A DNA stretch of 64,000 bases from Candidatus Woesearchaeota archaeon (GTDB lineage Archaea > Nanobdellota > Nanobdellia > UBA10117 > ARS21). This document shows, one piece after another, positions 8,536 to 55,263 of this stretch. The notes under the pieces were generated by a model that worked only from the letters and a program-made list of their open reading frames with translations, was not told the origin of the DNA and ran no database searches. How positions within the stretch are numbered: position 1 is the first letter of the stretch; each line of letters starts with the position of its first letter. The position numbers and the translations under genes were made by a program. Location of the stretch: NCBI GenBank assembly GCA_964344705.1, contig CAYFOG010000001.1, positions 48,984 to 112,983 of the forward strand. The letters run 5' to 3'.

Positions 8536-9792
8536 ATGGACCCTTATGATGATTATTCAGATAATGTCGATTATAATACTAGCTCAGATACTAATACAGA
8601 TACGAATTATGGCTCGGACGATGGCTATGATTCTTTTGGAACCGATACTTCAAGCACGGACAGTTTTTTGAATGAGCCGGCAGCACCAGCTCAAGATAGT
8701 TTCAGCAGCACAGGATTTGATGCTCCAGCAGATGTTTCAAGCCTGAGCAAAGATGATGAAGAACTTGAAAAAGTTCTTGCAAATCGTAAGGCTCGAATTA
8801 AAGTAGTTGGTTGCGGAGGTGCGGGAAACAACACAATTTCTCGGATTTCTGAAATCGGAGTTACGGGTGCAGAAATTATTGCAATTAACACAGATGCACA
8901 GGATTTACTGAACGCAACGGCAGATAGAAAGTTATTGATTGGAAAAGATTTAACTCAAGGTCTTGGAGCGGGATCCGATCCTAGAATTGGAAAAGATGCT
9001 GCCAAGGAATCTCAGAAAGAAATTAAGGAATCGTTGTCCGATGCGCATATGATATTTATTACTGGTGGACTTGGGGGAGGAACAGGAACTGGATGTATGC
9101 CTGAAGTTGCAAGCATTGCAAAGAAGCTGGGCGTGTTGACTGTTGCTGTTGTCACCCTACCTTTTGAAATGGAAGGAGTTCTTCGACATGAAAATGCGAT
9201 GGTTGGTCTTGAAGAACTTGAAGGTTTGGTAGATACTTTGATTTTGATTCCAAATGACAAGCTGATTGAGCTTGCTCCAGACTTACCGCTTCATACTGCG
9301 TTCAAAGTTGCAGATGAAATTTTAACTAACGCAGTTAAAGGTATTGCGGAATTAATTACGAAACCAGGCTTAATCAATTTAGATTTTGCAGATATTAAGG
9401 CGGTTATGAGTTCGGGAGGAATTGCTATGATTGGACTTGGAGAAAGCGATACTGAAAATAGAGCGATTGAATCTGTTGAGAAAGCACTGAGCAATCCTTT
9501 GCTAGATGTTGAAGTTGGAGGAGCAACCGGTGCTTTGATTAATGTTATTGGTGGTCCAGATATGACTTTAGAAGAAGCCAAGAAAGTTGTTGAGAATGTT
9601 ACTGAACGACTTGACGAGAACGCAAAGATTATTTGGGGTGCACAGCTGAGTCCAGAATTGCAAAGTTCTGTTCGAACGATGCTTGTAGTTGTTGGAGTTA
9701 AATCTCCACAAATTTTTGGTCCAAAGAGAACCATGTCTAAGAAGAAGCAAGAAGACATGGAAGGTAATTTCGGAATTAAATTTATTGACTGA
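8536..9792 (+). CDS. ftsZ: Cell division GTPase FtsZ with an ~85-aa acidic, S/T/D/Y-rich N-terminal extension
   Basis: Tubulin signature [22 protein letters not shown]7 loop region; the low-complexity extension precedes the core. Confidence 0.9.
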
Positions 9793-10127
9793 TGGAATTT
9801 GATGAATATCAAAGTAAAACAAAAGAGACAGCAATTTATCCGCGAGACAATCAAATGACTGCTTTGAGCTATGCAACTTTAGGTCTTGTTGGTGAGGCTG
9901 GTGAGATTGCAAATAAAGTCAAGAAAATTATTAGAGATCAAGGTGGAGAACTCAGCCAAGAGGTCAAAGATAAATTGGGCAAAGAATTAGGTGATGTTTT
10001 GTGGTATGTTTCTGCTTTGGCGACAGAATTGGGAGTGAATTTGAGCGCGGTTGCTAGCGATAATATTGATAAATTGTTTTCCAGAAAAGAGCGCGGAACC
10101 TTGAAAGGAAGTGGTGATAATCGCTAA
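9792..10127 (+). CDS. MazG-like nucleotide pyrophosphohydrolase (small all-alpha NTP-PPase)
   Basis: EEAGEIA-type and ELGDVLWYV motifs; 111 aa. Its start overlaps the ftsZ stop (ATGA). Confidence 0.65.
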
Positions 10128-10170
10128 GTTCACTGGAAAGCTTTATAAATGAAACTTCTCAGTTTTAGGT

Positions 10171-10410
10171 ATGGTTTCACCTATTCAAATTGATGCACCA
10201 GAAATACATATACCAAAACCAAAAGAATGGCCGGGATTGATACAAAGAAAATTTCGAGAGTATAAGAGAGTTTTATCTATCACGAAGAAACCATCTATGG
10301 ATGAGTTCAAGGCAATTGTTAAAGTAACTGGCTTAGGAATGGTAGTTATAGGTCTAGTTGGATTTGCAATTTTCATGATTGTCCAAGGAATGGGAAATTT
10401 AGCAATATGA
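10171..10410 (+). CDS. secE: Protein translocase subunit SecE/Sec61-gamma
   Basis: 79 aa with a single C-terminal TM helix, in the conserved position upstream of spt5 and rpl11. Confidence 0.7.
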   Translation: MVSPIQIDAPEIHIPKPKEWPGLIQRKFREYKRVLSITKKPSMDEFKAIVKVTGLGMVVIGLVGFAIFMIVQGMGNLAI

Positions 10411-10859
10411 CAATATTTACAATAAGAACGGCAATTGGTAGAGAAGAACAAGTAGTTGATTTTCTATCAACTAATGCTGAAAAGGCAGACGGAATTCATG
10501 CTATTTTGAGTCCACACGGGGTTGTTGGATATATCTTTATTGAAGCAGATTCTGTTACTGATGTTCAACATATTTCTTACAGAGTTCCTTATGTTCGAGG
10601 AGTTCTAACAAAACCCGTCACTATTGATTCGATTGATCACTTGATTGAATTCAAACCAGAAAATGTAGATATCCAACTTGGAGATACTGTTGAAATTATT
10701 GGCGGCCCATTTAAAGGTGAAAGAGGAAGAGTTACTCGACTTAAGACAGAAAAGTCTGAAGTTATTGTTGAGTTGCTTGAGGCAGCCGTACCAATTCCGA
10801 TAACTTTAAATCTTGATTCAGTAAAAGTCGTTGGTAAAGAAGGACGAGAGGAAAAATAA
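10407..10859 (+). CDS. spt5: Transcription elongation factor Spt5 (NusG homolog)
   Basis: NGN domain followed by the KOW motif (GDTVEIIGGPFKGERGRV). Position between secE and rpl11. Start overlaps the secE stop. Confidence 0.8.
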   Translation: MTIFTIRTAIGREEQVVDFLSTNAEKADGIHAILSPHGVVGYIFIEADSVTDVQHISYRVPYVRGVLTKPVTIDSIDHLIEFKPENVDIQLGDTVEIIGGPFKGERGRVTRLKTEKSEVIVELLEAAVPIPITLNLDSVKVVGKEGREEK

Positions 10860-11341
10860 TGTCAGAAACAATTGAATTACAAGTCAAAGGCGGACAAGCA
10901 TCTGGAGGTCCACCACTCGGTCCAAAGTTGGGACCAACAGGAATTAATATTCAAGAAGTAGTTGGAGCTATCAATGAAAAAACTGCACCAATGAAAGGCA
11001 TGACTGTGCCAGTCAAAGTTCATATTAATACGGAGGACAAATCCTTTGAAATTGAAATTGGAACACCGCCAACAGCAGGTTTAATTCTAAAGGAGTTAGG
11101 AATCCAAAAAGGTTCAGGCGCTCCAGGAACAGAATTTGTTGCTGATATGACTATTGAACAAGCTTTGAATGTTGCAGATATTAAACTTTCAGGAATTTTA
11201 GCTAAGTCTCGTAGCGCTGCTCTGAAAGAAGTTATTGGAGTCTGTAATTCTATGGGAATTAAAGTTAATGGTGAAGAACCTGATAAAGCTTCTAAACTAA
11301 TTGGTGAAGGCAAGTGGGATAATTTAATTCCTGCTAAGTAA
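10859..11341 (+). CDS. rpl11: 50S ribosomal protein L11
   Basis: N-terminus VKGGQASGGPPLGPKLGP and L11 C-terminal domain; ATAATG overlap with the spt5 stop. Confidence 0.9.
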   Translation: MSETIELQVKGGQASGGPPLGPKLGPTGINIQEVVGAINEKTAPMKGMTVPVKVHINTEDKSFEIEIGTPPTAGLILKELGIQKGSGAPGTEFVADMTIEQALNVADIKLSGILAKSRSAALKEVIGVCNSMGIKVNGEEPDKASKLIGEGKWDNLIPAK

Positions 11342-11551
11342 TTCTCTAAGGTTGTCACAACCACCAATAAATTTTCCATCCAATAAAATTATTGGGACTG
11401 TTTGATGATTATATTTGTCTTTAATTTTTTGAAGCTCATCTGGTTTGTCGTCCATAATATGTTCTTCAACTTCAATATTCTTTTTGATTAGAAGTTTCTT
11501 TGCGTCCTTACAAAACGGACAAAAACTCCACGTCCAAATTTCAGCTTTCAT
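11324..11551 (-). CDS. Glutaredoxin-like protein
   Basis: CPFC active site, and a GGCD motif near the C-terminus. The track start at 11593 is a TTG and would overlap alaS; the ATG at 11551 immediately follows the alaS stop. Confidence 0.6.
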   Translation of the reverse strand: MKAEIWTWSFCPFCKDAKKLLIKKNIEVEEHIMDDKPDELQKIKDKYNHQTVPIILLDGKFIGGCDNLRELLSRN

Positions 11552-14055
11552 TTTCTTTTTGATTTCCTTAATGCTTTTCTTAGTCGTTTCCAAGTTGTAA
11601 ATAGTTCTTCAACTGCTTCGGGAATTGGTTGGACTTTAATTTTTGGAACTGGCTTTTCCAACTTCTTACTCATTTCACGCATTTCTTTTATGAATCGAGC
11701 AATTGTTTTTGGCAAGTGTTCTTTTTGAGCTTTTAATATTGTGGATGCTTCATGAATTTCATCAAGTGTGACGGTTCCAGATCTTGTACCGAATGCTGCG
11801 AGTATTTCTGAACCTAATCTTTTTTCTTCTGTCTCAAGTTGCTTTGCAACTTCGCCAGCGACATATGAAATTCTAATTACACCATCTTGAATTCTTTTTG
11901 AACCAAGAAGTTTTATCTGACCTATTTCTTTTGTATTATCTAAATGTGTTCCACCACATGCTTGGGCGTCGAAACCTTTTACATGAACAACCCGAACATC
12001 GCCCCCGGGAACGAATCCACCTTGATATAATGTAAATCCGAATTTCTTTTCAGCTTGATCTTTTGGAAGAACTACTTTTTCAACTTCGATTTTGTCTTGA
12101 ACTGCTTTGTTTGCAACTTGCTCAATCTTTTTGAGTTGCTTTCCAGTTAGAGAATCAAAATGAGTTATATCCAATCGACCTCTTTCTTCGTTTACATCCG
12201 ATCCTGCTTGCCAAACATGTTTTCCAAGAACTTTACGTGCAGCACCACCAACTACGTGAGTTGCGGTATGATGTTTCATTGTTGTACTTCGACGCTCATC
12301 ATCAATACGACCAATCACTTCATCTCCTTCCTTGAAATCAATGTTTTCAACTTCGTGCATAATGTAGGGTCCTTGATTGAAAGTATTTACAACCGGATTC
12401 ATGTTTAATGAACCGCTATCGAAATTCTGACCGCCACTTGTTGCGTAAAACAAAGTTTTGTCAAGAATTACATATCGATTGTCAATTATTTTCAGAACTT
12501 TTGCGTCAAATTCTCTCGCCCTTTCATCTGCCCAAAATAATTTCAATGTCGGAGGAATTCCTTCAAAAGATAAATCTTTTTCTTCCTCGAATATTGGAGC
12601 ATTTCTTTTTTCGTGCTTTGCAGCTACTTTCATGTAGAAGTCTGCTGGAACCTTTATCTTTCCTTTGGATGCTTCAGAAAGTTCTTCAGGCGTAACTCCA
12701 TGAGAATCATATAATTCAAGTAATTTGTTTTCATTAACAGTTGTTTTGATTACTTTTGAAATTATCCGTTTACTGATTATTTTAGACTGATTGTATTTTC
12801 TTTCTTCAGCTTTCAGAATTTCTTGAACAGATTTTACACTTTTTGATAATTCCGGATATTGAGGTTTTAATTCCTTAGCATGTAAGTCGATAAGTTTTGA
12901 ATAGTCAAGTTTTATATTGTACTTATTTGCAAAATCCATGCTTCTTCGGTAGATGCTTCGAAGATTATACCCTCCACCTGAATTGGACGGAAGTGCACCG
13001 TCTGCTAAGGCGAAAAGCAGTGTTCGAGAATGATCTGCGATTGCGTACAAAGAAGAGACAGGATAAATTTCATCTTTCAATTTGTTCTTAGAATATCCAA
13101 TTTTTCTTGCTGTGCTTGCCCACATTTTTTCAATATCATCAACTTCATCAACATTAAGATTTCCAGACACTGGAACAAATTTTGTCCACAAATTCATATC
13201 GGGTTTTCGTCCTGATTGCTTGTAAAGATATTTAACTGTCTGCGGCATCGTTAATTCGAAATTTATGGGTTTTCCAGAGGTTAGCCAAGGATAACGCTCT
13301 TGACCCGAACCCATATCTAAAACATTAATATCTAAATCTTTGTATCCGGCCGGAGTAACTTTGTAAGTCATATAAACCTGATTACCCAATTCTACTCCAC
13401 GAGAGAAATATTCCAAAGAAGTTCCAAGATTTCCACCTCCGCCCCATTGGTCTTCGTGAAATTGAAGTTCATCCAGAGGAAGTTTTACTCCTTTTGTTAA
13501 CCAAGTAATTATATCTGAAAGATATTTTGCTTTGTCGTAATTTTCTGGAGATTGAAAAGTATGCTGACCTAGATGAAAATGTGTTGAATAGTGTCTCCCA
13601 GTAATTCCAACATTGTCAATGTCATTAAATCTCAAAGACGGTTGAGACATAACTAAAGGATTTGCTGGAGGACTAACCGTTCCCCCAACTACGAAAGGTT
13701 GAAAAGCATAAATTGAAGCTTGAGTAAACCAAGTATCGTCTCTCCAACGTGCAACAGTAGGATATCTCTTGATAGGAGTGTAACCCAATTTTTTCATTGT
13801 TGAAGAGAATTTATCCCAAGTTTCTAAATAACCCAATTTTGATTTTGTTGGAGCATCATTAATGAAGGAATAACCACCACTACACTCAGGTTCGCCACAA
13901 GTTTTTCTTTTCACCACCGACCAAAAGAATGTTCCACATTTAGAACAGCTGGTTCTACTAAACCCATTATCCTTTAGAACTTGAATTGGATAAAACTTCT
14001 CGGGATTCTTACTGGCTTTCCTTTTTAAATCTAGCTTCAGTGTTTTTAGACTCAT
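11548..14055 (-). CDS. alaS: Alanyl-tRNA synthetase (archaeal type)
   Basis: N-terminal Zn motif SCSKCGTFFWS, editing-domain HTATHVV and CGGTH motifs, about 835 aa. The track start at 14064 is a GTG; the ATG is at 14055. Confidence 0.9.
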   Translation of the reverse strand: MSLKTLKLDLKRKASKNPEKFYPIQVLKDNGFSRTSCSKCGTFFWSVVKRKTCGEPECSGGYSFINDAPTKSKLGYLETWDKFSSTMKKLGYTPIKRYPTVARWRDDTWFTQASIYAFQPFVVGGTVSPPANPLVMSQPSLRFNDIDNVGITGRHYSTHFHLGQHTFQSPENYDKAKYLSDIITWLTKGVKLPLDELQFHEDQWGGGGNLGTSLEYFSRGVELGNQVYMTYKVTPAGYKDLDINVLDMGSGQERYPWLTSGKPINFELTMPQTVKYLYKQSGRKPDMNLWTKFVPVSGNLNVDEVDDIEKMWASTARKIGYSKNKLKDEIYPVSSLYAIADHSRTLLFALADGALPSNSGGGYNLRSIYRRSMDFANKYNIKLDYSKLIDLHAKELKPQYPELSKSVKSVQEILKAEERKYNQSKIISKRIISKVIKTTVNENKLLELYDSHGVTPEELSEASKGKIKVPADFYMKVAAKHEKRNAPIFEEEKDLSFEGIPPTLKLFWADERAREFDAKVLKIIDNRYVILDKTLFYATSGGQNFDSGSLNMNPVVNTFNQGPYIMHEVENIDFKEGDEVIGRIDDERRSTTMKHHTATHVVGGAARKVLGKHVWQAGSDVNEERGRLDITHFDSLTGKQLKKIEQVANKAVQDKIEVEKVVLPKDQAEKKFGFTLYQGGFVPGGDVRVVHVKGFDAQACGGTHLDNTKEIGQIKLLGSKRIQDGVIRISYVAGEVAKQLETEEKRLGSEILAAFGTRSGTVTLDEIHEASTILKAQKEHLPKTIARFIKEMREMSKKLEKPVPKIKVQPIPEAVEELFTTWKRLRKALRKSKRK

Positions 14056-14092
14056 GAATAACACTAGAGAGAGAAATTATTAAGAGTTTGTA

Positions 14093-14929
14093 TTACTTTT
14101 TCAACAAACCTTTTTGAAGTTTCAAAATATCATCTTTGCTGAGTTTCTTACCTGTTTTTAGTGCTGCTTTTACATCAGCTTTCAGAGTGTCTTCATTTTT
14201 GTTGAAGATTTCCATTGCAGACTTTCTTGCAGTTTCTGGAAGCTTGGACATATCTTTTAGAACTCCACCGAGTCTAGCATTCATTATGTTAATTTGATCC
14301 TTCAAACCATTTAACACAAGTTTTGCAACATTTCTTTGTCGTTTGATTTTTGAAATTTCACTTGAGAGTTCGGTAAGACGATCAAAAATTTGACTTGACT
14401 CCTTTGCAAGAGTTTGTATTTTATTGTGAGTGGCATCAGCTTCTTTCTTGATTTCCTTTGTTTTCTTTTGAATTTCCTTGAACTCAACAGAAGGTTTCTG
14501 CAAATCTTGATACTCCTTTATCACTTTTTTCAAAGATTTAATTTTAGTCATTATGTCTTTTTCTTTTTTCATACTGACTGCTCCAGTTTCAATTTGAAAT
14601 TCAAGTTGCTGAATTTCAGCTAAAAATTTTTCTTTAGGAATCTTTGGCAGTTTAGCTTTATTCTTTTTATGTTGCAAGCGTAATTGTTTGAGTTTTTTGA
14701 GCCCCTCTCGAACTTCTTTGTTTTTGTTGTTACGTTCTTTCTTCGAAGTTGACAGCTCCTTTTCGATTTCCTTTTTACGAGCGTTTAAATCAACTGCTTC
14801 TTTGATTAGCTTATTAAGAACTCCGCCAAGTTTTGTTTTTTCTCGATATTTTTGCTCTTTCTTGTTTCCTAAATCTCTAAGAGATCCAGTGAGTTCCTTT
14901 GCCTGTGTTTTTAATATATTTATATCCAT
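14093..14929 (-). CDS. Hypothetical K/E-rich coiled-coil protein (278 aa)
   Basis: Heptad-like charged repeats throughout; no enzymatic motif. Confidence 0.4.
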   Translation of the reverse strand: MDINILKTQAKELTGSLRDLGNKKEQKYREKTKLGGVLNKLIKEAVDLNARKKEIEKELSTSKKERNNKNKEVREGLKKLKQLRLQHKKNKAKLPKIPKEKFLAEIQQLEFQIETGAVSMKKEKDIMTKIKSLKKVIKEYQDLQKPSVEFKEIQKKTKEIKKEADATHNKIQTLAKESSQIFDRLTELSSEISKIKRQRNVAKLVLNGLKDQINIMNARLGGVLKDMSKLPETARKSAMEIFNKNEDTLKADVKAALKTGKKLSKDDILKLQKGLLKK

Positions 14930-14978
14930 TTGTATCCTCCTTATTCTGAGGGTTGTTGGTTTAGAGCATCACTCGGAT

Positions 14979-15293
14979 TTAACCGAATAATGCACCAAGA
15001 CCTTCAGAGACGTCTTCTTCAGAAGCTTCTTGTTTTTCTTCTTTTGCTTCTGCTGAACTTTCTTCAGCTGCGTCTGCGCTAGCTGCTGGAGTTGCTGGAG
15101 CTGCACTTGCACTTGCTAGTTGAGTTTCTTCAATTACTTTATTGATATCAACATCTGCAAGAGCTGCGGCAGTTGCCTTAACTCGAGCTTCATCAACGCT
15201 TACGCCAGCTGCAGTTAAAGTCTTTGTAAGTGCGTCAGCACTAACGTCTTTTCCTGCCTTGTTTAGTAACATTGCTGCATATACGTATTCCAT
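14979..15293 (-). CDS. rpl12: 50S ribosomal stalk protein P1 (L12e)
   Basis: N-terminus MEYVYAAMLL, alanine-rich hinge, conserved acidic C-terminus ending GLGALFG. Confidence 0.8.
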   Translation of the reverse strand: MEYVYAAMLLNKAGKDVSADALTKTLTAAGVSVDEARVKATAAALADVDINKVIEETQLASASAAPATPAASADAAEESSAEAKEEKQEASEEDVSEGLGALFG

Positions 15294-15295
15294 TT

Positions 15296-16312
15296 TTATT
15301 CCTTATCAGATTGATTATCTGAAGATGATTCTTCCTCAACTTTTTCCTCTTGAGGATTTTCTGATTCAGTAGCTTCAGCTACCTGTTCTTCTTTTGATTC
15401 GGTTTCTTTTACTTTATCTTCTTTTTGGTCTTCTACTGACGATTCAGTTGGAACATCTCCAACTTTATCCTTTAGTGCTGAAGCAACTGTGTCAGCCTTA
15501 GATAAAACCAAATCTCTTACTTTGTCTGCAAGAATTCCTTGCGCATAAGCAAGTTTCATTGCATCCATTTCTGCATTTCGAAGCATAATTTCTGCTGTTT
15601 CTTTGTTAATTAATCCTGTTCCAACTGCAAGCTTCAATGCGTCAATGTGTAATGCTTTGATTTGTGCGACTACTTCGTCTGAATCTACATCTAATTCAGA
15701 ACGCATAAAGATTGTTCCATCTTCAAGTGCCGCAACTAAATTTAGACCAATCTTCATTGGTTTAATTTCTAGTCTTTCTAGTAATGCTGCAAGTTGTGCT
15801 GAAAGAATATCTCCTTCACTTGCAACTTTTGAGTCTGCCTTTATTTCAATTTTCCCTGCATTAATTCCTGCGCTGATACCAACGTCACCAAGTTCTCCAA
15901 GGATTGGTCCTGGAGCAAAGTTGGTCATTCCTGCCGGAACAACAATATCGAACGGCGCTTCTTGTCCAGCCTTTGCAGCTGCTGAAGACATGTTAGATTT
16001 TAATAATGCCCATAATGAGAATGCATCCAATTCTGAAGTGATTATTGCAGGCATTCCTTTGAAGTGTTGAATAAGTTCTGCTGCTTTATCTTTCCCTGAA
16101 CTTTCAAGAGCTCTAGACATTAGTGTTTTTCTAGACATAAGAATATTCACTTTTGTGTCAATCTTTTCTTTGATAACTTGAAGTTGTCGTGATGGAAGGT
16201 CTTTCATATTCAAAACTGCAACAGTATTTGCGCTTTTAATTTGTTCAGCCATGGAATTGATTAAGTCTTTCTTCCAACTTGCTGCCTTTGTTTTGTATTC
16301 TGTTGCTTCCAT
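15296..16312 (-). CDS. rplP0: 50S ribosomal protein P0 (L10e)
   Basis: L10 N-domain plus a C-terminal acidic, stalk-like tail; located between L1 and P1. Confidence 0.85.
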   Translation of the reverse strand: MEATEYKTKAASWKKDLINSMAEQIKSANTVAVLNMKDLPSRQLQVIKEKIDTKVNILMSRKTLMSRALESSGKDKAAELIQHFKGMPAIITSELDAFSLWALLKSNMSSAAAKAGQEAPFDIVVPAGMTNFAPGPILGELGDVGISAGINAGKIEIKADSKVASEGDILSAQLAALLERLEIKPMKIGLNLVAALEDGTIFMRSELDVDSDEVVAQIKALHIDALKLAVGTGLINKETAEIMLRNAEMDAMKLAYAQGILADKVRDLVLSKADTVASALKDKVGDVPTESSVEDQKEDKVKETESKEEQVAEATESENPQEEKVEEESSSDNQSDKE

Positions 16313-16953
16313 TATAAGTTCACCTTCTTTGACATTGTAGACTTAACATAAACTTTGCCCATGTTGTTTTTTCCGTTTGGCAATGCATGTTCAACTGCAC
16401 CTACAACTTTGATTATGTTTGCTACCAATTCTTCATCTTTTTGATCTTCATATCCAATAGAACATTGGAATACTGGCGCTTTGTTTGCAACCAAACGAAC
16501 AGTATCTCTCAGTTTTGATACAATTGGTTCCAAATTTGCCTTTGGAGGAACGATTGCTCCAGCCCGTGGGCTAGGCATGCGATTAATCGGACCGAAATAT
16601 CGACCGAAAACTTGAGCGATTTGTGGCATCATATCAGCTTGAGCAATGAAATAATCAAATTCTCTAGCCAGTTTTTTAATTTCTCGAGGTTTTTTCCACT
16701 TTTCGAAATTAGAAGATAAAATAACTTTGTCAGCAGCCTTTGCTCCTGCTTCAGATTCATTACCGATCAGAGCGCAAATTTTAGCTTTCTTAGTTTTTCC
16801 TGAAGGAAGTCTGACAAATTCTTCGATTTTTCCTTGTTTATTCATGTCAATATCTTTCAGAGTAATTATAATATCTATGGATTGTGAGAAATTTCTCTTA
16901 GAAGTAATTTTTCTTAGTTCTGTTAATGATTTTTTGATAGATTGTTCATCCAT
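16312..16953 (-). CDS. rpl1: 50S ribosomal protein L1
   Basis: L1 family signature (GKxxKxxxCA, two-domain architecture), directly upstream of P0. Confidence 0.85.
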   Translation of the reverse strand: MDEQSIKKSLTELRKITSKRNFSQSIDIIITLKDIDMNKQGKIEEFVRLPSGKTKKAKICALIGNESEAGAKAADKVILSSNFEKWKKPREIKKLAREFDYFIAQADMMPQIAQVFGRYFGPINRMPSPRAGAIVPPKANLEPIVSKLRDTVRLVANKAPVFQCSIGYEDQKDEELVANIIKVVGAVEHALPNGKNNMGKVYVKSTMSKKVNL

Positions 16954-17021
16954 TTCGCTTTCGCTCCTGCCTAAGCAGTAATATGAGCTAATTATTTGGA
17001 TTTATAAAGATTGTTATTTGA

Positions 17022-19148
17022 TTAAGGTCGCATAGCATAACTTAGTGAATCTAAGTATTTTGTACCTGATTCTGTTACAACTTTGTAGAATGGCAAATAT
17101 GTAAGCTTTTTTGCACGGACTTCAAGTCCTTTAGATTTCAAAAATTCTACTACTTTGCTCTCTGAGATTTTCGGAGCTCTTTTTTCTCCTTGAAGATTGA
17201 GATATTTGGGTTTAAGAATAAAATTCAAGTTTTTTGGATTAAAAGTAGGTTGTGTTGCCGAAATTATTTTGTTTTCAACCTTTATTGCGCCCTGTCTGAC
17301 CAGTGTTTTTAGAATTCCATCAACTTCACTGAATGCCAGGCCCGATTTTACAAACACCTCAGAGAGCGGAGTGTTGGGTTTTTGTTTAACTAAATTCATA
17401 ATTTTTTGTTGATTTCCTGAAAGAGTTGGAGAATCACCTCCAAGACCAATTCGTTTCAATGATCGATTTAGATGTAATGCGCTAAATCTTTCAAGATCAA
17501 AAACTAAATGATAACTTTTTCCTGCCTTTTCACAAATTGTACTAAGAACGGGTTTCATTACAAAGGACAAAGATTTGATTGGAAATTTTTCAATAGTCTC
17601 AATTTCTTTTTTAGAAATTCGAGGTTCAAATATACTTAATTGAGATATTGCTGAAGTTGGTTGAGGCGCACTTCTTGTAACTGAAGTTTGCTGAGTTTTT
17701 GCTGGAACTTGAACTGTTACTTGTTGTCCTTCCTTTGAAATGTCTGCACGCTTTGCTTCAGAAATATCGAATGATTTTGAAGTTCCCCCATGGAGAGATT
17801 TTCTTACACGAATATCTACAAAGATTGGAAAATCTGTTGCACCAATTACCATTGCTTTTCCGATTGGAAGATTCCTGATTTCATTTTCTGCTTCTGCGGT
17901 AACGCCTTCAAACGAACGCGAGATTGCTGCCAAGTCCGAAGGATTAGTAACTTGAAGTGCAATTTGACTGCTGCATTGAGATAGAACTGATTTATCAACT
18001 CTGGCAGGTCTCTGAGAAATTATGCAAACTCCGAGACCAAACTTACGACCTTCCGATGCAATTGTTCTAATTACTCTTGAAGATTTTGCTTCACCGAAAC
18101 CTCGTTCAGGACAATAATTGTGCGCTTCATCAATAATCAAAAAGCCGGGAGGGATTTGCTCCAATTTCCGCTCTTCAAACATATTTGTTAGAAGACTTCT
18201 TGCTACAATTTCTTGAATTTCCTGCGATGCTCCTTTAAAATTTATAATTGTTAGTTGACCTGGTTTGACAATTTCATTGATTGGCGTTGGGTTATGACTG
18301 AACAATCCACTTTGTTCAAGCTGTTGTATTCCTCCAATCAGTCTCCACTTTGCTGTTGATTCTGCAATTTCAAGCTCTTTAATCAATTCGTCAAATTCAA
18401 ATCTGCCCTTTCTTTCCACCAAATCATTTATGACATTGTATAGCAAACCTCTCTGAGCATCAGTTGCTTTGAATGGAAGAGTTTCGGTCAGCGTAAATGG
18501 ATCGTTTGGAATTTTTAGTCTAATTTGATGAGCATCAATGTTTATTGAAGTGTTAACTGCAAATTCCATTAATTTTTCACCGTATGCTTTGGCTTGAATT
18601 CCGTAATGCTCAAAGTAATCCGTTTCCTTTTTGTTGGTATTTGGACTTTTGATGGATGAGTATTCTCCATGAGGATCAATAATTACTACGGGCACACCCA
18701 TATCTAAAATTTCTTCAAGAATTACGCCCACGGCATAAGACTTACCTGCTCCGGATTTGGCTAAAACTGCTAAGTGTTTTGTTATCAGCTTTTTTGGATC
18801 AAGAAAAGCTTTGATTGATTTTCCTTGCAAACGACCGAGATATACACCATTCATTCTTAAATCTAGAATGCTTTTGATGAGGTTATCTTCTGCGATAAAT
18901 ACTTCAGTTCCTGGTGCAAAAGGAGTTCTTGGCTGCCTCAAAAATCCTCGCTCAGTTCTGTGACCAATAATTGCACAACTGGCATAGGTCATGTTGTCTA
19001 CTTTTTCAACTTCGACCACTTGATTCAGCACTGGACCAACTTCGGGATGATTAACTGCAATATAATCCCATTTATTTACAAGACTTTTTACCACAAATTT
19101 GAAGCTAGTAGTTGATGTTCTACCAGAAACGGTACCAATGGCTGCCAT
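17022..19148 (-). CDS. HerA/FtsK-superfamily ATPase (DUF87-like) with an ~230-aa C-terminal extension
   Basis: N-terminal barrel-like domain, Walker A KSGAGKS, IIDPHGEY, Walker B FLIIDEAHNY, 708 aa. No nurA, mre11 or rad50 nearby. Confidence 0.65.
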   Translation of the reverse strand: MAAIGTVSGRTSTTSFKFVVKSLVNKWDYIAVNHPEVGPVLNQVVEVEKVDNMTYASCAIIGHRTERGFLRQPRTPFAPGTEVFIAEDNLIKSILDLRMNGVYLGRLQGKSIKAFLDPKKLITKHLAVLAKSGAGKSYAVGVILEEILDMGVPVVIIDPHGEYSSIKSPNTNKKETDYFEHYGIQAKAYGEKLMEFAVNTSINIDAHQIRLKIPNDPFTLTETLPFKATDAQRGLLYNVINDLVERKGRFEFDELIKELEIAESTAKWRLIGGIQQLEQSGLFSHNPTPINEIVKPGQLTIINFKGASQEIQEIVARSLLTNMFEERKLEQIPPGFLIIDEAHNYCPERGFGEAKSSRVIRTIASEGRKFGLGVCIISQRPARVDKSVLSQCSSQIALQVTNPSDLAAISRSFEGVTAEAENEIRNLPIGKAMVIGATDFPIFVDIRVRKSLHGGTSKSFDISEAKRADISKEGQQVTVQVPAKTQQTSVTRSAPQPTSAISQLSIFEPRISKKEIETIEKFPIKSLSFVMKPVLSTICEKAGKSYHLVFDLERFSALHLNRSLKRIGLGGDSPTLSGNQQKIMNLVKQKPNTPLSEVFVKSGLAFSEVDGILKTLVRQGAIKVENKIISATQPTFNPKNLNFILKPKYLNLQGEKRAPKISESKVVEFLKSKGLEVRAKKLTYLPFYKVVTESGTKYLDSLSYAMRP

Positions 19149-19243
19149 GTATAACTTTTTTGGTAGTTATATAAAAGCGTGTGTATGGAAACGTAGTTAT
19201 TTGCTAAGCAAACAGTTTAATAATTATATTCTCTACTTTTGGT

Positions 19244-36146: not shown

Positions 36147-36193
36147 ACGTTTTTGAACAAAAACTATATATTAAAAGCTTGTTAGTGTTTATC

Positions 36194-37354
36194 ATGTCTA
36201 TAGGCCGAAAAGGGAAGTCGGAAGTAAGCCCTACGGGTGCCGTAGTTTTGCTAGTTTTGCTCGCAGGATTTTTGCTATTTATCCTATCTCTTCCTCAAGG
36301 GGATCGAGATGATTTACTGAATCAATTAGAATCTGTTACTGTAGAAGTTCTTTTCGAAGAAGTTCCAGGAGACGTTCAGTCGGAAACAGGTTCTAGTAGC
36401 ACAACGCGCTATGACCTCACAAATTTCAAATTAGATTCAGAAATGAGTTCAAGAGATTCAGTATTAGATAGCAGTTTAGAACTATCTTCGACAGTTTTTA
36501 ATGATGATGCTGCAACTTATTCTTTTGTGCCAGTTTGGAATTCAAATACCATTGGAATGAGTTTTAATGCATTTGTTCAGAATTATGCAGGCAACGGAAA
36601 AATTGCTGTTTTGCTAAATGGAGCTCAAATATATTCGGGAACTCCTGTTGTTGGGAATGTGCTTAAAGTTCCACTTCCAGTTTCAGGAATGTTTCAAGGA
36701 ACTAATACTTTGGAAATAGTACTAGATAAACAAGGTGCTAATATTTTCAGTTCTACGAAAATTGGATTAACTGAAGTTCTGCTGAGAACGGACTCTACAG
36801 GGAAAGATTTGATGAGCACCTTTAGTTTTGAAGTTGAACGTGGAGAAATAGTTTCAGGAACTTATACCGCAATTGTTAGAAAATCTGGTGCAGCAGTTCC
36901 ACTTAAAATTGAGTTGAATGAAGAGAATATTTATTCTGAAGTTCCGCTATCAACCATATTAACTGTTCCAATTTCGGCTGGTTTGTTTAGAGTAGGAGAT
37001 AATTTACTATCATTCAGCATTGGTGAAGGAGTGTCCTACGAAATTCTTTATTCAGATTTGATTGTTAAAACTCGTGCTATTGAAGATGCCAGAGAGTATT
37101 TCTTTAGAATTGATAGAGATCAGGCTAGACGAATAATTAATGGCCGAGCAGACTGTCTTCTTGAGATTTCCAAAGACAGCGGAGCGTCTGATGAAGTTGT
37201 TGTTGATTTGAATGGATTTGTTAGCACGCACTCCGTTCGCTCTGGAGAAGTTTCGTTTGAGGTTTGCGACAGACTGGTTTATGGAGGGAATACAATTTCA
37301 TTTGCTTCTGATGAAGAGTTAAGTCTCAGTTCGGCAAGCTTGACTTTGAGTTAA
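36194..37354 (+). CDS. Hypothetical N-terminally membrane-anchored extracellular protein (first gene of a 4-gene surface operon)
   Basis: N-terminus MSIGRKGKSEVSPTGAVVLLVLLAGFLLFIL (basic residues then a hydrophobic anchor), S/T-rich extracellular part. The track start at 36179 is a TTG. TATA-like AAACTATATATTAAAAG lies about 20 nt upstream of the ATG (leaderless). Confidence 0.5.
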   Translation: MSIGRKGKSEVSPTGAVVLLVLLAGFLLFILSLPQGDRDDLLNQLESVTVEVLFEEVPGDVQSETGSSSTTRYDLTNFKLDSEMSSRDSVLDSSLELSSTVFNDDAATYSFVPVWNSNTIGMSFNAFVQNYAGNGKIAVLLNGAQIYSGTPVVGNVLKVPLPVSGMFQGTNTLEIVLDKQGANIFSSTKIGLTEVLLRTDSTGKDLMSTFSFEVERGEIVSGTYTAIVRKSGAAVPLKIELNEENIYSEVPLSTILTVPISAGLFRVGDNLLSFSIGEGVSYEILYSDLIVKTRAIEDAREYFFRIDRDQARRIINGRADCLLEISKDSGASDEVVVDLNGFVSTHSVRSGEVSFEVCDRLVYGGNTISFASDEELSLSSASLTLS

Positions 37355-37355
37355 G

Positions 37356-39269
37356 ATGGCAGATAATTCTGGTACAACAACCAATAAAGAGAAATGGATT
37401 GAGATTGGGAGTGCGCCGAAGGCTATTTTCAAAGCAGGAATATATGTATTAGTTATTTTCTTCTTTGCGGTTTTAGGTTATAATACTGGAGCCCCATTAA
37501 TCTGGTTTACTTATGTAGCAAACTTTTTTTGGGATATATTTAATTTGATTGCAAGAACAATTGGTGTTCCTGGAATTTCTCCTTTTTTTCTTGACTTTGC
37601 CTATGTTGCGGTAAAGAATGGAACGGGTTTTATTTTGAATGGTCTGTTTGGTTGGTGGCTCGTTCAAAATTTTTATCAAGGCACAAATAAAGTGGCCGGT
37701 GCTAAAAAATTAACAAGTAGCCTGTTCAATTTGGTCATAATTTTTCCATTAATTTGGATTTTTCTGAGTTTAATTATTACAACAGTTTACACAGGTTATG
37801 TTCCTTTTACAGACACAACAATGAGTCCATCACTTTGTGATTTTCAAAATTCAGCTCAACAAGCTGTTGGCTTGAGTCCGGTGTCTTGTGATATTTCTTC
37901 AATAACTGCGTCTATTGAGAGACAAGAAGAAGAAGCAGAATTTACAGCGACGACGGGAACGGGAATTTTAGGAAGGCTGTTTTCTCCAGTTATAGAGTCG
38001 ACGGGCGTTGGAAAAGTATTCAAATCTCGAGATGTGACGGATGAGAATGTTATTAATGCAGACGCAGGTTCAACTCTAACTGATTTGCGTGCTCCGAAAT
38101 TAAGTTATACTGCAAATGATAGAGTTGCAGAAGATATTAAGATATTAGCAAATATTGAGGCCAAGAATTTGTTCTTAAATCAACCAGGTAGTTCCAAGAT
38201 TGAAGTCAAGATTGAGCCAAGCATTTCAGATGCTCAATGTAGTAGTTGTTCAGGATTTAGCTGTTTGGCTGAAGAAGTTAATCTGCCGTTCTATGCTTTT
38301 GATCCTCTAGAAGATAATTCTATTGAATTTAATGCGGAAAATATTGAAGGTTGGTGTGATGAAGATGAGCAGGGCGGAAAGTGGACTTGCGGAATTAGTG
38401 GAATTTCTGAAGAAGATAGAATTGCTCCAAACACTTTCAATTTAGGAAGCGGATTCCACCAAGAGATTACTTGCATACATCCTGGACTTTCCTTGAGCGA
38501 AGAAGTGTTTGTTGATGGAGATGATGTAAAATATGATGGTCTTGGTAAACCGTTCTATGTTGATGTTGATTTCTCATATGATGGAACCGCCGCAGCAAAC
38601 AAACAATTGTTTGTGATTGACAAGAATGTTGCTCGTCAGGAAGAAGACCCGCTAACGGCACTGAGCTTACAAGATTACATAATTTCCAATTCTTATAATG
38701 ATGGAAGAGTAACTTTGGGAATTGGAACTGACACTTTGTATGAGTTTGTTACTCCAACTTATGATGAAGATTTCTCTTCAGATGTACTTGAACTTGCGTT
38801 AAGTTTCAAAGTAAATAGATATCCCGGTGGATATAAAGCAGAAGTCAACAAAGTTACTTTATGGGTCCAAGTTTTGGATGAATCTGTGGGATTCGTTTGC
38901 GGAAATGAAGGATTACCGAAGAAAGTTGATGGAAAATGGCAAATTGATAATCCTTGCGAAGTCGGCGAGCGAAGCGGAAACTTCCATTATGAAGGAACTG
39001 ATGAAACTGAAAGCTATCACAAGTTTGTTATGAATGCAGAGAATGCAACTGAGCTTGGTGCCAAGACGGAGTTGAATGTTGGGCAGTTTGCAAATTATGA
39101 TATTGATATGTTTATTCCTTCAGAAGTGCTGGCTGGAGCCAGTTATCAAGGTATTTTAATAGAGGCCGAGGTTGATTACACTTACACTACTCGAGACGAT
39201 ATATTAGTTAGAGTGACGCACGATGAATTTATTTCAGACGGAGCATCAGACATTGAACAGAACATATAA
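37356..39269 (+). CDS. Hypothetical polytopic membrane protein (about 4 N-terminal TM helices) with a large Cys-rich extracellular domain
   Basis: 637 aa. Multiple Cys clusters (CSSCSGFSC, WCDEDEQGGKWTCGISG, VCGNEGLP...NPCEVG). The start is 1 nt after the previous stop. Confidence 0.5.
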   Translation: MADNSGTTTNKEKWIEIGSAPKAIFKAGIYVLVIFFFAVLGYNTGAPLIWFTYVANFFWDIFNLIARTIGVPGISPFFLDFAYVAVKNGTGFILNGLFGWWLVQNFYQGTNKVAGAKKLTSSLFNLVIIFPLIWIFLSLIITTVYTGYVPFTDTTMSPSLCDFQNSAQQAVGLSPVSCDISSITASIERQEEEAEFTATTGTGILGRLFSPVIESTGVGKVFKSRDVTDENVINADAGSTLTDLRAPKLSYTANDRVAEDIKILANIEAKNLFLNQPGSSKIEVKIEPSISDAQCSSCSGFSCLAEEVNLPFYAFDPLEDNSIEFNAENIEGWCDEDEQGGKWTCGISGISEEDRIAPNTFNLGSGFHQEITCIHPGLSLSEEVFVDGDDVKYDGLGKPFYVDVDFSYDGTAAANKQLFVIDKNVARQEEDPLTALSLQDYIISNSYNDGRVTLGIGTDTLYEFVTPTYDEDFSSDVLELALSFKVNRYPGGYKAEVNKVTLWVQVLDESVGFVCGNEGLPKKVDGKWQIDNPCEVGERSGNFHYEGTDETESYHKFVMNAENATELGAKTELNVGQFANYDIDMFIPSEVLAGASYQGILIEAEVDYTYTTRDDILVRVTHDEFISDGASDIEQNI

Positions 39270-39293
39270 AAATGAGGGAGGGCTTCATAGATT

Positions 39294-40274
39294 ATGAAGA
39301 AACTTCATGTAATCATGCTTATTCTAGTAGTATTTCTGAGTGGATGTACTGCTGATGAGTCTATTGAGGTTCCAGTAGCTTCTAATTATGTTGGATTGGT
39401 TACAAGCGTTTATGCAGATTCTTTACCAAGTTCATTATATGAAGGAGATGCAATTTATTTGCAGTTACAGGTTGAAAATCAAGGAGATCATGATGTTGCT
39501 ACAAGTGAGTATTATCTGAACATAAAAGGAATTAATCCTGGAGCTTTTGAGGGTTTGGATGAGACCGATCTAACCAAAACTTCTAGCACGAATTTAGCGT
39601 CATTAGGTGCTTTTGGTAATGACACAATTGTTCGAGGTCAAGAAATATTTACTCTTGGTGAATCATTTACTTATTGTAATGATATTGATAATGACTTACC
39701 TTTGAATCTTCATGCTAAATCTTGTTATGATTACGGAACAACTTCAGAAATATCTGCGTGCTTTATTGAATCAACCGCAAGTATTGATGGAGAAATTTGT
39801 ACGGTTTCAGAATTTAAGCCAGTAACAAACAGTATTGCGCCGATAGTGATTACTGAAATTGCAGAGAGCGTTGCAGGAGCATCAGATGTTCGATTTAGAG
39901 TAAAAGTTGAGAACCTTGGAGACGGAACAGTATTTGACAAATATGCTTTGGGAACTGAGACAGATACTATTGTTGGTTGCGATAATTTGGTTCGAGGAAC
40001 AAGCAACCTGGTGTATATTGAGAAAATAACTTTGGATGGAATACCTATGAATTTGAGATATGAAGGAGGTGTTGAAACTACTTCAGATGGAAGAAACAGA
40101 TTTAGACTTGATTCAACGGGCGCGGGAAGATTCTCTTTTGTGACTGGAACAACAGGTCTTGAATTTGTTGGTAATGTTGAGATTGAGTTAAGTTATGGTT
40201 ACACTGAGACAGACGTCTTTAGCTCAACAATCAAAGCACTTCCAGACTTTAGCCCGACGTGTAGTGTTGCCTAA
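39294..40274 (+). CDS. Hypothetical lipoprotein (lipobox LSGC), paralog of the next gene
   Basis: Signal peptide plus the lipobox VFLSGC. Conserved Cys pattern shared with the 40277 protein. SD GGAGGG upstream. Confidence 0.55.
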   Translation: MKKLHVIMLILVVFLSGCTADESIEVPVASNYVGLVTSVYADSLPSSLYEGDAIYLQLQVENQGDHDVATSEYYLNIKGINPGAFEGLDETDLTKTSSTNLASLGAFGNDTIVRGQEIFTLGESFTYCNDIDNDLPLNLHAKSCYDYGTTSEISACFIESTASIDGEICTVSEFKPVTNSIAPIVITEIAESVAGASDVRFRVKVENLGDGTVFDKYALGTETDTIVGCDNLVRGTSNLVYIEKITLDGIPMNLRYEGGVETTSDGRNRFRLDSTGAGRFSFVTGTTGLEFVGNVEIELSYGYTETDVFSSTIKALPDFSPTCSVA

Positions 40275-40276
40275 AA

Positions 40277-41263
40277 ATGAACATTCGAAAAGCAATTATT
40301 GTGGTTTTGTTAATATTTGTTAGCGGATGCGTTCATGGAGCGCAAACTACTTCTAGCGGAGATATTGGAAGCGGACTGATTGGCACAAATAACGGAATCA
40401 TTTTTGAAATGTCAGAAATTCCACCAGCGATCAGTTCAGGTCAAGCATTTGGTTTAGAAGTTTCAGCGACAAATGCTGGTTCATATTCTGTAAATCCAGG
40501 AGACGTCAGAGTTTCATTAAGCAATTCAAAATCCTTCAATTTTTTATTGAATGAAGATTTTCAGCAAGTGATAGTTGGGGAAAACGGTTTAACTAATAAT
40601 AATGTTTTGCTTAAGTCTTTGGACGCAGATGTTCTTGGAGATTCAGCAATTTTCTTGTTTGATGATTTGTCTTACAAAACTAAACCTACTCAAGATATTC
40701 AAGTTCCGCTTACAATTGATACTTGTTATTATTATTCCTCTGTTGCGTCCGTAAATATTTGTGTTGCAAAAGATACGTCAAGCGAAATTTGCAGTTCAAA
40801 CGAAGCTAAGTCTGTTGTAAATCACGGAGCTCCAATAAAGGTTTCAGGATTTGAACAAATAAGTAGTTTGGGCAACAAAGAAGTAATTACATCAAATATT
40901 CGGATCGATGTTGATGCTGTTGGAGATGGCAAATTTGAATCTTATTCCACTCCAAAGCCAACATTGGATTGTACTGCTCCAGCAAGCGATATTATTCTTA
41001 ACTCAGTAAGATTGAAATCTATTCAAGTTGGAAGTCAAGCAATAATTGAAGGAGATGATATTGACAGCGTTTGCGAAGTTTCTCAAGATGGCGGAATTAT
41101 TAATTTGGATGCTGATGGAAAAGGTTCAATCGTTTGTAATGGTGTTAGACTTTATGGACAATATACAGAATCAATTGGTGATTTTGAAGAAAGAATGGTA
41201 ATTACTTTGGATTATTTGAATTCAGACAGCATTACTGGAAATTTGAAGGTTCTATCAAATTAG
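40277..41263 (+). CDS. Hypothetical lipoprotein (lipobox VSGC), paralog of the preceding gene
   Basis: Signal peptide plus the lipobox IFVSGC. Shared C-x(8-10)-C-x9-C region and similar length (328 vs 326 aa). Confidence 0.55.
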   Translation: MNIRKAIIVVLLIFVSGCVHGAQTTSSGDIGSGLIGTNNGIIFEMSEIPPAISSGQAFGLEVSATNAGSYSVNPGDVRVSLSNSKSFNFLLNEDFQQVIVGENGLTNNNVLLKSLDADVLGDSAIFLFDDLSYKTKPTQDIQVPLTIDTCYYYSSVASVNICVAKDTSSEICSSNEAKSVVNHGAPIKVSGFEQISSLGNKEVITSNIRIDVDAVGDGKFESYSTPKPTLDCTAPASDIILNSVRLKSIQVGSQAIIEGDDIDSVCEVSQDGGIINLDADGKGSIVCNGVRLYGQYTESIGDFEERMVITLDYLNSDSITGNLKVLSN

Positions 41264-43609: not shown

Positions 43610-43905
43610 TATACTTGAGTTGCCTTCTTCAGTCTATTGAAAGACCGTGGTTGAGACTTACCACATTTTTCGCAAGTTAATAGGAATGTCGGCTTTGTAG
43701 TTTGTTTGTGTTTAGTAGCAGCTTTAGCTCTTGGCATTCCGCCATATCCTGCCATAATTTTGAAAACTCTTCGAGCTCCTTTATTCAGTGCGTTTTTCTT
43801 TGTCTTCGGACGTGGTTTGTTTTTCATCAGTTTCATTGAGTGTTCCTGATGTTTTCTGCAATCCTTCGCAGGACAATATGTTCGAACTGTTTTTGGAAAT
43901 TTCAT
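43609..43905 (-). CDS. rpl44e: 50S ribosomal protein L44e
   Basis: N-terminus MKFPKTVRTYCP; C-terminus CEKCGK. Confidence 0.8.
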   Translation of the reverse strand: MKFPKTVRTYCPAKDCRKHQEHSMKLMKNKPRPKTKKNALNKGARRVFKIMAGYGGMPRAKAATKHKQTTKPTFLLTCEKCGKSQPRSFNRLKKATQV

Positions 43906-44689
43906 TGTTTTGTATAACTTCTGAAGTGTTTATAACTTCTTCGGTATCGCTGCTTTCCGGTGCTACGAATGTTATTTCATCAGTGATTTCAGCAGGTTCG
44001 TTGGCTGGTTTTTGCGCATCTAGAATTTCAATTACTTCATCAGGAAGTTTAACTTTTTGACCGGCAGTAAAGGGTCCATATTTTTCCATATTTGGGCCGT
44101 AGAATTCAGGAGTATTGTTTGTTACTGTATAATCTTTCATAGCTACGGATTTATTTTTTTCCACTTGTGTAGCTATGGCCTTTTTGAGTTCTTTTTTAGC
44201 AGTTGCTCTTCCTTCTTTGAAGTGTTTTTTTACATCAATGTCTTCTCGAAGTTTCAAAGGCTGCATTATCTGATTTGGATAATTACCGTCGTTGTCAATT
44301 GTTGCTGTAAACCCTTTCCTAAATCTTTTTAGAACAAATATTAACTGGTCATACAATTCTTCTTCAACTTCAAGCATATTACTTGTGTCTCTAATTGAAT
44401 TTTCAACTCTGCTGTTGAACACTGCGCGATTGATTAATTTCCGTTCCCGTTTTTCAAGCAAATCTTTAATGACTCTGCTCGCGTTACCTATTTCAATTTG
44501 AACTTTGGCTCTATTGTGTGTGGCAAATAAGTTTGTGGATTGGTTTTGACCTTGTGTTGCCTTCTCCTTTTCTTTGAAATACTCTTTAATTTTTCTAAGG
44601 TCTTCTTTTGTCAGTTCTTGCAAGTCTGAGGAGAATTTTTCATTTCTAGAAATTTCATATATGTCCTCATAATTAAATGTCTCAACCAT
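43781..44689 (-). CDS. Probable GINS subunit (Gins51-like) with a long acidic, S/T-rich C-terminal tail
   Basis: Helical A-domain pattern (LQELTKEDLRKIKEYF...ASRVIKDLLEKRERKLINRAVF), directly downstream of priS. The tail overlaps the rpl44e 5' end by about 125 nt in another frame. Confidence 0.5.
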   Translation of the reverse strand: MVETFNYEDIYEISRNEKFSSDLQELTKEDLRKIKEYFKEKEKATQGQNQSTNLFATHNRAKVQIEIGNASRVIKDLLEKRERKLINRAVFNSRVENSIRDTSNMLEVEEELYDQLIFVLKRFRKGFTATIDNDGNYPNQIMQPLKLREDIDVKKHFKEGRATAKKELKKAIATQVEKNKSVAMKDYTVTNNTPEFYGPNMEKYGPFTAGQKVKLPDEVIEILDAQKPANEPAEITDEITFVAPESSDTEEVINTSEVIQNNEISKNSSNILSCEGLQKTSGTLNETDEKQTTSEDKEKRTE

Positions 44690-44723
44690 CAATTAAATTT
44701 TGGGTTCAGATTTAAGTATATTG

Positions 44724-55212: not shown

Positions 55213-55230
55213 ACTCGCTCCCTCATACTC

Positions 55231-55255
55231 TCACCTGAGGTACCTCAGGAGGTGA
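55231..55255 (+). promoter_or_regulatory. Intergenic hairpin (palindrome CCTGAGGTACCTCAGG with flanks) overlapping the SD-like GGAGGTGA of the next gene
   Basis: Perfect 7-bp stem CCUGAGG/CCUCAGG with a 2-nt loop. GGAGGUGA lies 8 nt before the ATG at 55264. Confidence 0.35.
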
Positions 55256-55263
55256 AAAACAAA

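Follow-up and report, generated by a model that had tools for sequence, protein, structure and literature searches.

A woesearchaeal gene next to the L1-P0-P1 ribosomal genes points to a distinct, uncharacterised archaeal group of HerA-clade ATPases with seemingly exchangeable C-terminal tails

How would a HerA-type ATPase be employed in the cell when no nuclease partner is recognised among its neighbours, when a long C-terminal extension follows its motor, and when its gene lies directly upstream of ribosomal genes? This question is raised by a gene on the minus strand of a 64-kb stretch of DNA from a Candidatus Woesearchaeota archaeon (the whole stretch is called the window hereafter). Its product is a HerA-clade P-loop ATPase with all catalytic motifs intact. 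From profile scores and sequence identities we concluded that the gene belongs to a distinct, uncharacterised orthologous group spread across Archaea within the HerA clade, and the explanation that seems to us the best overall, which we hold with moderate confidence, is that of a hexameric HerA-clade DNA translocase, set apart as a separate archaeal group and positioned by an exchangeable tail. What is new here is the tail with its orphan fold; the motor that carries it is of a known kind, and its archaea-wide family is uncharacterised.

Relatives were sought in one genome per GTDB species, which gave at least 584 stretches carrying them. Counts out of 40 refer to an alignment of 40 family members, and neighbourhood counts to 82 loci, for which five neighbours on each side were taken and clustered. 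The open reading frame (ORF) is a genuine conserved gene and not a chance one, since full-length homologs at E = 0 cover 100% of its length; the closest of them (91-93% identity) carry the names DHVE6 group, Woesearchaeota and Nanoarchaeota, which assigns the window to a DPANN archaeon. The gene and the parts of its 708-amino-acid (aa) product are placed as follows.

17022..19148, minus strand: whole gene, from the ATG start to the stop codon (included), encoding the 708-aa HerA-clade ATPase with its C-terminal module
18864..19148, minus strand: N-terminal domain (aa 1-95), a putative HAS barrel, aligning with family members that match PF09378
17784..18845, minus strand: HerA central domain and RecA-like ATPase core (aa 102-455), matching PF01935 (2.2e-35) and the HerA chains 9x1l and 4d2i of the PDB
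18738..18761, minus strand: Walker A P-loop AKSGAGKS (aa 130-137), from sequence and alignment
18120..18143, minus strand: Walker B FLIIDEAH (aa 336-343), from sequence and alignment
17991..18053, minus strand: EGRKFGLGVCIISQRPARVDK block (EGRKFG...SQRPARVD, aa 366-386), a signature of the FtsK-HerA superfamily with conserved Gln and Arg, from the alignment
17640..17783, minus strand: variable linker rich in Ser, Thr, Gln and Pro (aa 456-503), of low conservation and alignment occupancy
17439..17639, minus strand: first half of the C-terminal scaffold (aa 504-570), one helix and a four-stranded meander in the AlphaFold2 (AF2) model
17253..17426, minus strand: predicted winged helix-turn-helix inserted in the scaffold (aa 575-632)
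17040..17231, minus strand: second half of the C-terminal scaffold (aa 640-703), predicted as a helix and a long beta hairpin

An earlier note on this DNA had called the HerA motifs and the barrel clear. For the motor this holds well: PF01935 (HerA central domain, DUF87) matches the window protein at 123.2 bits against a cut-off of 23.2 and is matched by all 40 members, HerA_C is matched too, more weakly, and the Walker A, Walker B and EGRKFG...SQRPARVD blocks are all intact, with invariant core residues (E366-G371, Q379 and R380 in the third block); G5 and T13 of the N-terminal domain are invariant too. The conserved Gln and Arg of the third block presumably act as arginine finger or sensor, as is general knowledge for the superfamily. 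The barrel, however, is backed at the family level only: PF09378 is matched by 12 of the 40 aligned members (best E 1.5e-4) and by most Methanosarcinales orthologs, whereas the window protein itself was left unmatched by the Pfam scan at E <= 0.1, and a HAS barrel at aa 1-95 is thus putative. The ATPase core ends at an HGG motif (aa 453-455).

Many family members (P0049, P0071, P0123, P0124, P0129, P0132 and P0135, and likewise P0137, P0143, P0150, P0161, P0163 and P0164) are extended by inteins and reach 1100-1340 aa, all the inteins having HN/S or HN/C ends (a slash marks the junction). They occupy at least five sites, all of them in catalytic motifs (GAGK/S, DEAHNY/C, TIA/SEGRKF, CI/ISQRP and VDK/SVLSQ), the Walker A P-loop being the most frequent among homologs, which is consistent with strong constraint on a protein of high conservation.

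Within the HerA clade, the window protein does not appear to be a canonical repair HerA deprived of its partners. It reaches 141.5 bits with the NCBIfam HerA equivalog NF040819, whose cut-off is 970, and 112.2 bits with NF040937, whose cut-off is 800; the Methanohalophilus ortholog falls short in the same manner (153 against 970 bits). At the same time, its 457-aa core is 40-48% identical in Methanosarcinales, ANME-1, Syntrophoarchaeum, Hydrothermarchaeota, Altiarchaeales and Thermoplasmata, and likewise in Aciduliprofundum, Halobacteriales, Bathyarchaeia, Micrarchaeota, Nanohaloarchaeota and Aenigmatarchaeota, and the family profile scores the orthologs at 550-990 bits as against 164-182 bits for solved HerAs. 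Because the equivalog cut-offs are missed widely and the orthologs are closer to each other than to the solved HerAs, we regard the group as distinct. In literature searches on HerA in DPANN archaea, on HerA with FtsK and winged helices, on DUF87 in archaea, on NurA and Mre11 in DPANN archaea, and on HerA in segregation and division, no description of this orthologous group was found. Cultured methanogens that have orthologs include Methanococcoides, Methanolobus and Methanohalophilus, and the public names of cultured orthologs are restricted to 'ATP-binding protein', 'DUF87' and 'helicase HerA domain-containing protein'.

The main rival explanation is that of an ordinary HerA of double-strand-break resection, with NurA and Mre11-Rad50 encoded elsewhere in the genome and the C-terminal module serving as an accessory DNA-binding domain. 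We consider it unlikely, even though it is the alternative that fares best. Its strength lies in the fact that the best NCBIfam and PDB matches of the window protein are precisely repair HerAs (NF040819 at 141 bits, 9x1l at 6.6e-36 and 4d2i at 7.8e-29), that the HAS barrel is the NurA-binding surface of Sulfolobus HerA (PMC3326311), and that Hjc, UDG and PolX in the window testify to repair functions that have been kept; moreover, the herA-nurA-mre11-rad50 operon has been reported in thermophilic archaea, which makes unlinked genes plausible in mesophiles. Nevertheless, the scores lie far under the equivalog cut-offs both in the window and in Methanohalophilus, the family is conserved across phyla at an identity that brings its members much closer together than to any solved HerA, RefSeq gives the cultured orthologs other names than HerA, and no adjoining nuclease gene was recognised in the 82 loci. 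The earlier note's statement that NurA, Mre11 and Rad50 are lacking from the flanking genes was borne out for the window, where Pfam scans of 35 other ORFs did not find them, the remaining ORFs of at least 120 aa being read by eye only. Compared as a whole with HerA (MlaA) of thermophilic archaea (Sulfolobus 4d2i, and 9x1l, entitled 'DNA helicase'), the window protein has the same HerA domain, RecA-like ATPase, Walker A and B and QRP motifs, and a putative N-terminal HAS barrel backed at the level of the family, but it carries a linker and a 205-aa C-terminal module that HerA does not have, and it misses the equivalog cut-offs and the NurA, Mre11 or Rad50 neighbours, here as in the 82 related loci. 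On one Woesearchaeota contig (L031) a second, shorter DUF87 ATPase of 440 aa, with no HAS-barrel match, is encoded at 11670-12992 on the minus strand, 3.4 kb from the ortholog; its neighbours match no Pfam family and say nothing for or against a separate HerA-NurA pair.

It is after the HGG motif that the window protein departs from the known motors. The extension had been described as 230 aa long; it is real, although its size is rather of about 253 aa, made up of a 48-aa linker, in which Ser, Thr, Gln and Pro amount to a fraction of 0.50, and a folded module of 205 aa. The artefact that would have explained it away, a frameshift or the fusion of an unrelated ORF, is excluded because the extension is conserved across more than 100 homologs with the same architecture. 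Alignment occupancy is about 0.6 over aa 461-500 and at least 0.94 nearly throughout the module (residues 500-700), falling only in the last 30 or so residues, which are missing from shorter homologs, and homologs of 650-715 aa still span 97-100% of the query when identity has dropped to 36-39%. With a profile of the module, only 270 clusters were retrieved among 1.84 billion cluster representatives; the module is almost always C-terminal, in proteins of 630-700 aa or in the intein-bearing ones of 1100-1340 aa, and it was found in Nanoarchaeota, Woesearchaeota and Pacearchaeota, and weakly in Aenigmatarchaeota.

The two AF2 models of the module have predicted local distance difference test (pLDDT) scores of 92.9 and 93.9, and an alpha/beta scaffold with an inserted winged helix is confidently predicted. 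The winged helix that the earlier note had regarded as possible is indeed present in these models, as a three-helix bundle with a beta-hairpin wing. The isolated module has no Pfam match, while HTH_IclR scores 14.6 bits on the window protein against a cut-off of 22 and TrmB is matched by 7 of the 40 members. A structure search with the scaffold returned no match in PDB or BFVD, relative to which it would be an orphan fold. The module is strongly basic in the window (net charge +17), and the net charge of the winged helix ranges from -4 to +8 across members. Unlike the winged helices of MarR, TrmB and ArsR or of RPA32C, the present one is a single copy inserted in another domain and not a dimeric regulator, and it is dispensable, as natural variants devoid of it exist (for instance P0209). 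Sequence-specific reading of DNA is doubtful because the recognition helix has a conserved Glu and its N-terminal half is without a basic residue conserved across members; the winged helix may bind protein rather than DNA.

The region that follows the HGG motif varies by lineage. In the tails of Nanohaloarchaeota there is no clear match to the module, although two scaffold-like units can be made out by eye, and at the loci L055 and L056 no winged helix was seen in this way. In the Methanosarcinales, Hydrothermarchaeota, Altiarchaeales and ANME-1 type, a charged disordered linker is followed by a short C-terminal peptide, such as GGFLKKVFSRG, EGLLKKLFSRY, GGLFKKIFGSEK or KSMLARLLFE. The C-terminal end of E. 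coli MinD is KGFLKRLFGG, the membrane-targeting helix of that protein. MinD-like terminal peptides are found at loci L045, L047, L049, L052, L053, L060 and L063, and further at L064, L068, L073, L075 and L084-L086 (proteins P0266-P0385). Defined as a hydrophobic pair, two other residues and a second hydrophobic pair within the last 14 residues, with the expectation obtained by shuffling, the motif occurs in 24 of the 38 orthologs without the DPANN module (2.0 expected) and in 118 of the 120 of Methanosarcinales type (0.8 expected). Such peptides would be predicted membrane tethers and do not fit a resection complex, which again weakens the repair reading. Three such endings of orthologs outside DPANN (GGFLKKVFSRG, GGLFKKIFGSEK and RGLLRKIFGG) resemble the MinD targeting sequence, from which they differ in being carried by a HerA-type motor and not by a ParA/MinD ATPase; they are absent from the window protein, and their binding to membranes is putative. 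In Thermoplasmata and Halobacteriales (L066, L072 and L087), in turn, the tails show a C-x6-C-x2-C-x5-C pattern that resembles the iron-sulfur (Fe-S) loop of EndoIII, a putative DNA binder. As other archaeal lineages have another device at this position, the tail looks like an exchangeable localisation device.

In the mechanism that we propose, six HerA-like subunits would form a ring and double-stranded DNA would be threaded through its pore, as in HerA and FtsK. A flexible linker of about 45-48 residues would tether the basic module of about 205 aa to the motor, and the six tethered tails would place or load it on DNA, on the membrane or on a partner. What has been observed is the domain composition, the conservation, the separate grouping of the orthologs, the lack of a conserved partner gene, the varying tail and its orphan fold; the hexamer, the DNA substrate, the function of the tail and the cellular role are elements that we infer.

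Several points weigh against this proposal and have to be kept in view. The hydrophobic C-terminal peptide could be a PCNA-interacting or another protein-binding peptide instead of a membrane tether; the window protein is itself without an amphipathic C-terminal peptide, and the tether argument is taken from its orthologs. The putative Fe-S loop is a cysteine pattern seen by eye together with sub-threshold Pfam matches (E 0.0065 and 0.042). The winged helix, with the Glu in its recognition helix, its varying charge and its absence from some variants, makes a doubtful sequence reader. A nurA gene could lie elsewhere in the genome, the paralogy with canonical HerA being deduced from scores and not from co-occurrence, and a role on DNA leaves unexplained why so many translation genes are found as neighbours.

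Could this family then be an analogue, in Archaea, of the chromosome pump FtsK? The two are ring motors of the FtsK-HerA superfamily, and they share a logic in which the motor is followed by a long flexible linker and then by a module that contains a winged helix, with an element predicted to resemble a membrane anchor standing at the C-terminal end in the orthologs. By the usual marks of FtsK membership, the PF01580 domain and an N-terminal anchor, the family falls short: PF01580 (FtsK_SpoIIIE) is weakly matched by 3 of the 40 members (best E 7.8e-4), and a 19-aa hydropathy scan found no N-terminal transmembrane anchor in the window protein, whose most hydrophobic stretch (aa 139-157, mean 1.97) lies within the ATPase core. 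When the PDB was searched with the family profile, moreover, only HerA-type chains were matched, FtsK, VirB4 and TrwB chains being absent from the matches, and the winged helix, compared with the gamma domain of FtsK/SpoIIIE, sits in a different scaffold and is without conserved DNA-reading residues.

An FtsK-like cellular role is thus a tentative idea, for which the family is a candidate. In its full form, which we likewise regard as speculative, the orthologous group would be the long-sought functional counterpart of FtsK in Archaea, a HerA-type pump that an exchangeable C-terminal device would hold at the membrane or the chromosome and that would clear or segregate DNA at the FtsZ division site. 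Methanogens and their relatives would have a MinD-like amphipathic helix as this device, Thermoplasmata and Halobacteriales a domain with an Fe-S loop, and DPANN archaea a domain of new fold into which a winged helix is inserted. The role in segregation or division that the earlier note had mentioned for stand-alone HerA-like ATPases is therefore kept as a hypothesis, to which the membrane-targeting-like and DNA-binding-like tails of the orthologs would lend indirect support. To our knowledge, no FtsK-like DNA translocase has been assigned in archaea that divide by FtsZ. An FtsK-like role for HerA was reportedly proposed by Iyer et al. in 2004, and the HerA that was studied proved to be an enzyme of resection, coupled to NurA. 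In a 2024 review of the archaeal cell cycle, FtsK comes up for bacteria only and HerA nowhere. A second HerA-type group, present across Archaea, with no nuclease linkage recognised and with tails that resemble localisation devices, constitutes a concrete and testable candidate. The DPANN tail is also of interest in its own right, as a domain predicted with confidence for which PDB and BFVD offer no match. Should the segregation idea be wrong, a clean annotation would still be gained, that of a conserved housekeeping HerA paralog which is incidentally located beside ribosomal genes.

Membrane-targeting-like tails in the orthologs would also suit a ring ATPase of HerA/VirB4 type working in DNA uptake or export (CedB/CedD, TdtA) or in the secretion of proteins or pili, the tail docking onto a membrane complex. 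Weak matches to CedD (82 bits on the window protein), to TrwB_AAD_bind (20 of the 40 members), to AAA_10 and to type IV secretion system (T4SS) families point in this direction, as does the general knowledge that DPANN cells depend on contact with a host. Yet the Ced and T4SS models always score under the HerA models, no conserved membrane or pilus partner lies nearby in the 82 loci, and orthologs are present in free-living methanogens; we find this alternative improbable.

Downstream of the gene, L1, P0 and P1 follow on the same strand. The sites that matter for the relation between them are listed here, the TATA-like boxes having been located by eye, with no bacterial promoter scanner, the organism being archaeal.

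19168..19175, minus strand: TATA-like box TTTATATA of the HerA-like gene, 19 nt before its ATG, read from the sequence
17001..17008, minus strand: TATA-like box TTTATAAA in the 68-nt spacer, assigned to L1 and not to the HerA-like gene, kept in loci L004 and L002
14979..16953, minus strand: L1-P0-P1 ribosomal genes, as context only
16312-16953, minus strand: L1
15296-16312, minus strand: P0
14979-15293, minus strand: P1

The earlier note had drawn attention to this placement. Its orientation and order are right, with a spacer of 68 nt and not 69; a functional meaning of it is not supported, as L1-P0-P1 adjacency occurs in 3 of the 82 loci only, namely the window and the related lineages L002 and L004. 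The orthologs of L004 and L002 (64% and 51% identity) share the order Kae1-(Sua5)-gene-L1-P0-P1-DUF7121-AlaRS, and those at 41-44% identity have unrelated housekeeping surroundings. The TTTATATA element, also present upstream of the L004 ortholog, predicts a leaderless or near-leaderless transcript of the HerA-like gene. Since each of the two genes has a TATA-like box that is kept in related loci, the HerA-like gene and L1 would have separate promoters and no functional coupling, and the adjacency appears to be a local synteny of the lineage with no evident functional meaning.

Between the TATA-like box and the ATG of L1, its 5' untranslated region (5'UTR) contains a hairpin (window 16967-16978, minus strand, CTGC-TTAG-GCAG). 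Its counterparts lie at 8111-8122 in L004 (CTGAC-TA-GTCAG) and at 10611-10622 in L002 (CTGC-TTCG-GCAG), the stem being retained in L004 by compensatory change, and the hairpin may be an L1 autoregulatory site.

At a larger scale, no neighbour family is found in more than 10 of the 82 loci, so that no conserved partner gene emerged, nor was a nuclease partner recognised among the recurrent neighbours. Many of the latter are related to translation (Kae1, Sua5, Cbf5, S8e, Dph5, L1 and AspRS). Two syntenies recur, Sua5-S8e-gene-AspRS in the ANME-1-like group (L050, L058, L061, L065, L074 and L079) and Dph5-gene-DUF357 in Methanosarcinales, Thermoplasmata and Halobacteriales (L066, L068, L070, L084 and L087), and Sua5 and Kae1 stand upstream of the gene in the window's own lineage as well.

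From these neighbours, and from an L1 gene that is co-directional and only 68 nt downstream, one could picture a ribosome- or translation-linked assembly or remodelling ATPase co-transcribed with L1-P0-P1. Context and scores speak against such a role, which we judge very improbable: in all three loci that share the adjacency L1 is preceded by a TATA-like box and by a 5'UTR hairpin that is conserved, no RNA-binding or ribosome-binding domain was found in the protein, and in small archaeal genomes, of which translation genes are a large fraction, neighbours of this kind are to be expected.

The weakest alternative, an anti-virus defence ATPase of Sir2-HerA or DUF4297-HerA type or a mobile-element ATPase, was rejected on context and on scores below cut-off and hardly deserves credence, for although PADLOC HerA models reach up to 154 bits and the NCBIfam anti-phage HerA models 99 and 91 bits, these matches look like generic HerA similarity far under the cut-offs (800 and 850 for the latter two), no adjacent effector gene is conserved across loci, and the neighbours form a stable housekeeping context in many archaeal lineages, with no patchy defence-island distribution.

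As for the rest of the window, the ORFs read by eye are mostly translation genes (AlaRS, LeuRS, HisRS and SRP54), and Pfam matches identify FtsZ, both RFC subunits, a fused PriS-PriL primase, GINS51, PolX, Hjc and UDG. FtsZ (8536-9792, plus strand) is followed by Spt5/NusG and L11 on the same strand, and AlaRS and the DUF7121 coiled-coil protein lie between this L11 group and the minus-strand L1-P0-P1 genes (8536-16953 in all). The usual arrangement being an L11-L1-L10-L12 cluster, this cluster is split and inverted in the window. The fused primase is a 432-aa ORF (44724-46022, minus strand) that matches both the PriS and PriL families and is flanked by GINS51 (43781-44692) and PolX (46048-47046). 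At 53089-59490, on the plus strand, three consecutive proteins of 707, 529 and 844 aa with hydrophobic, signal-like N-termini and repeated Ig-like/FixG_C-type domains are probably surface proteins. Finally, four consecutive ORFs at 36179-41263 on the plus strand (391, 637, 326 and 328 aa), which have hydrophobic N-termini and either no Pfam match or a single marginal one, may constitute a lineage-specific envelope cluster.

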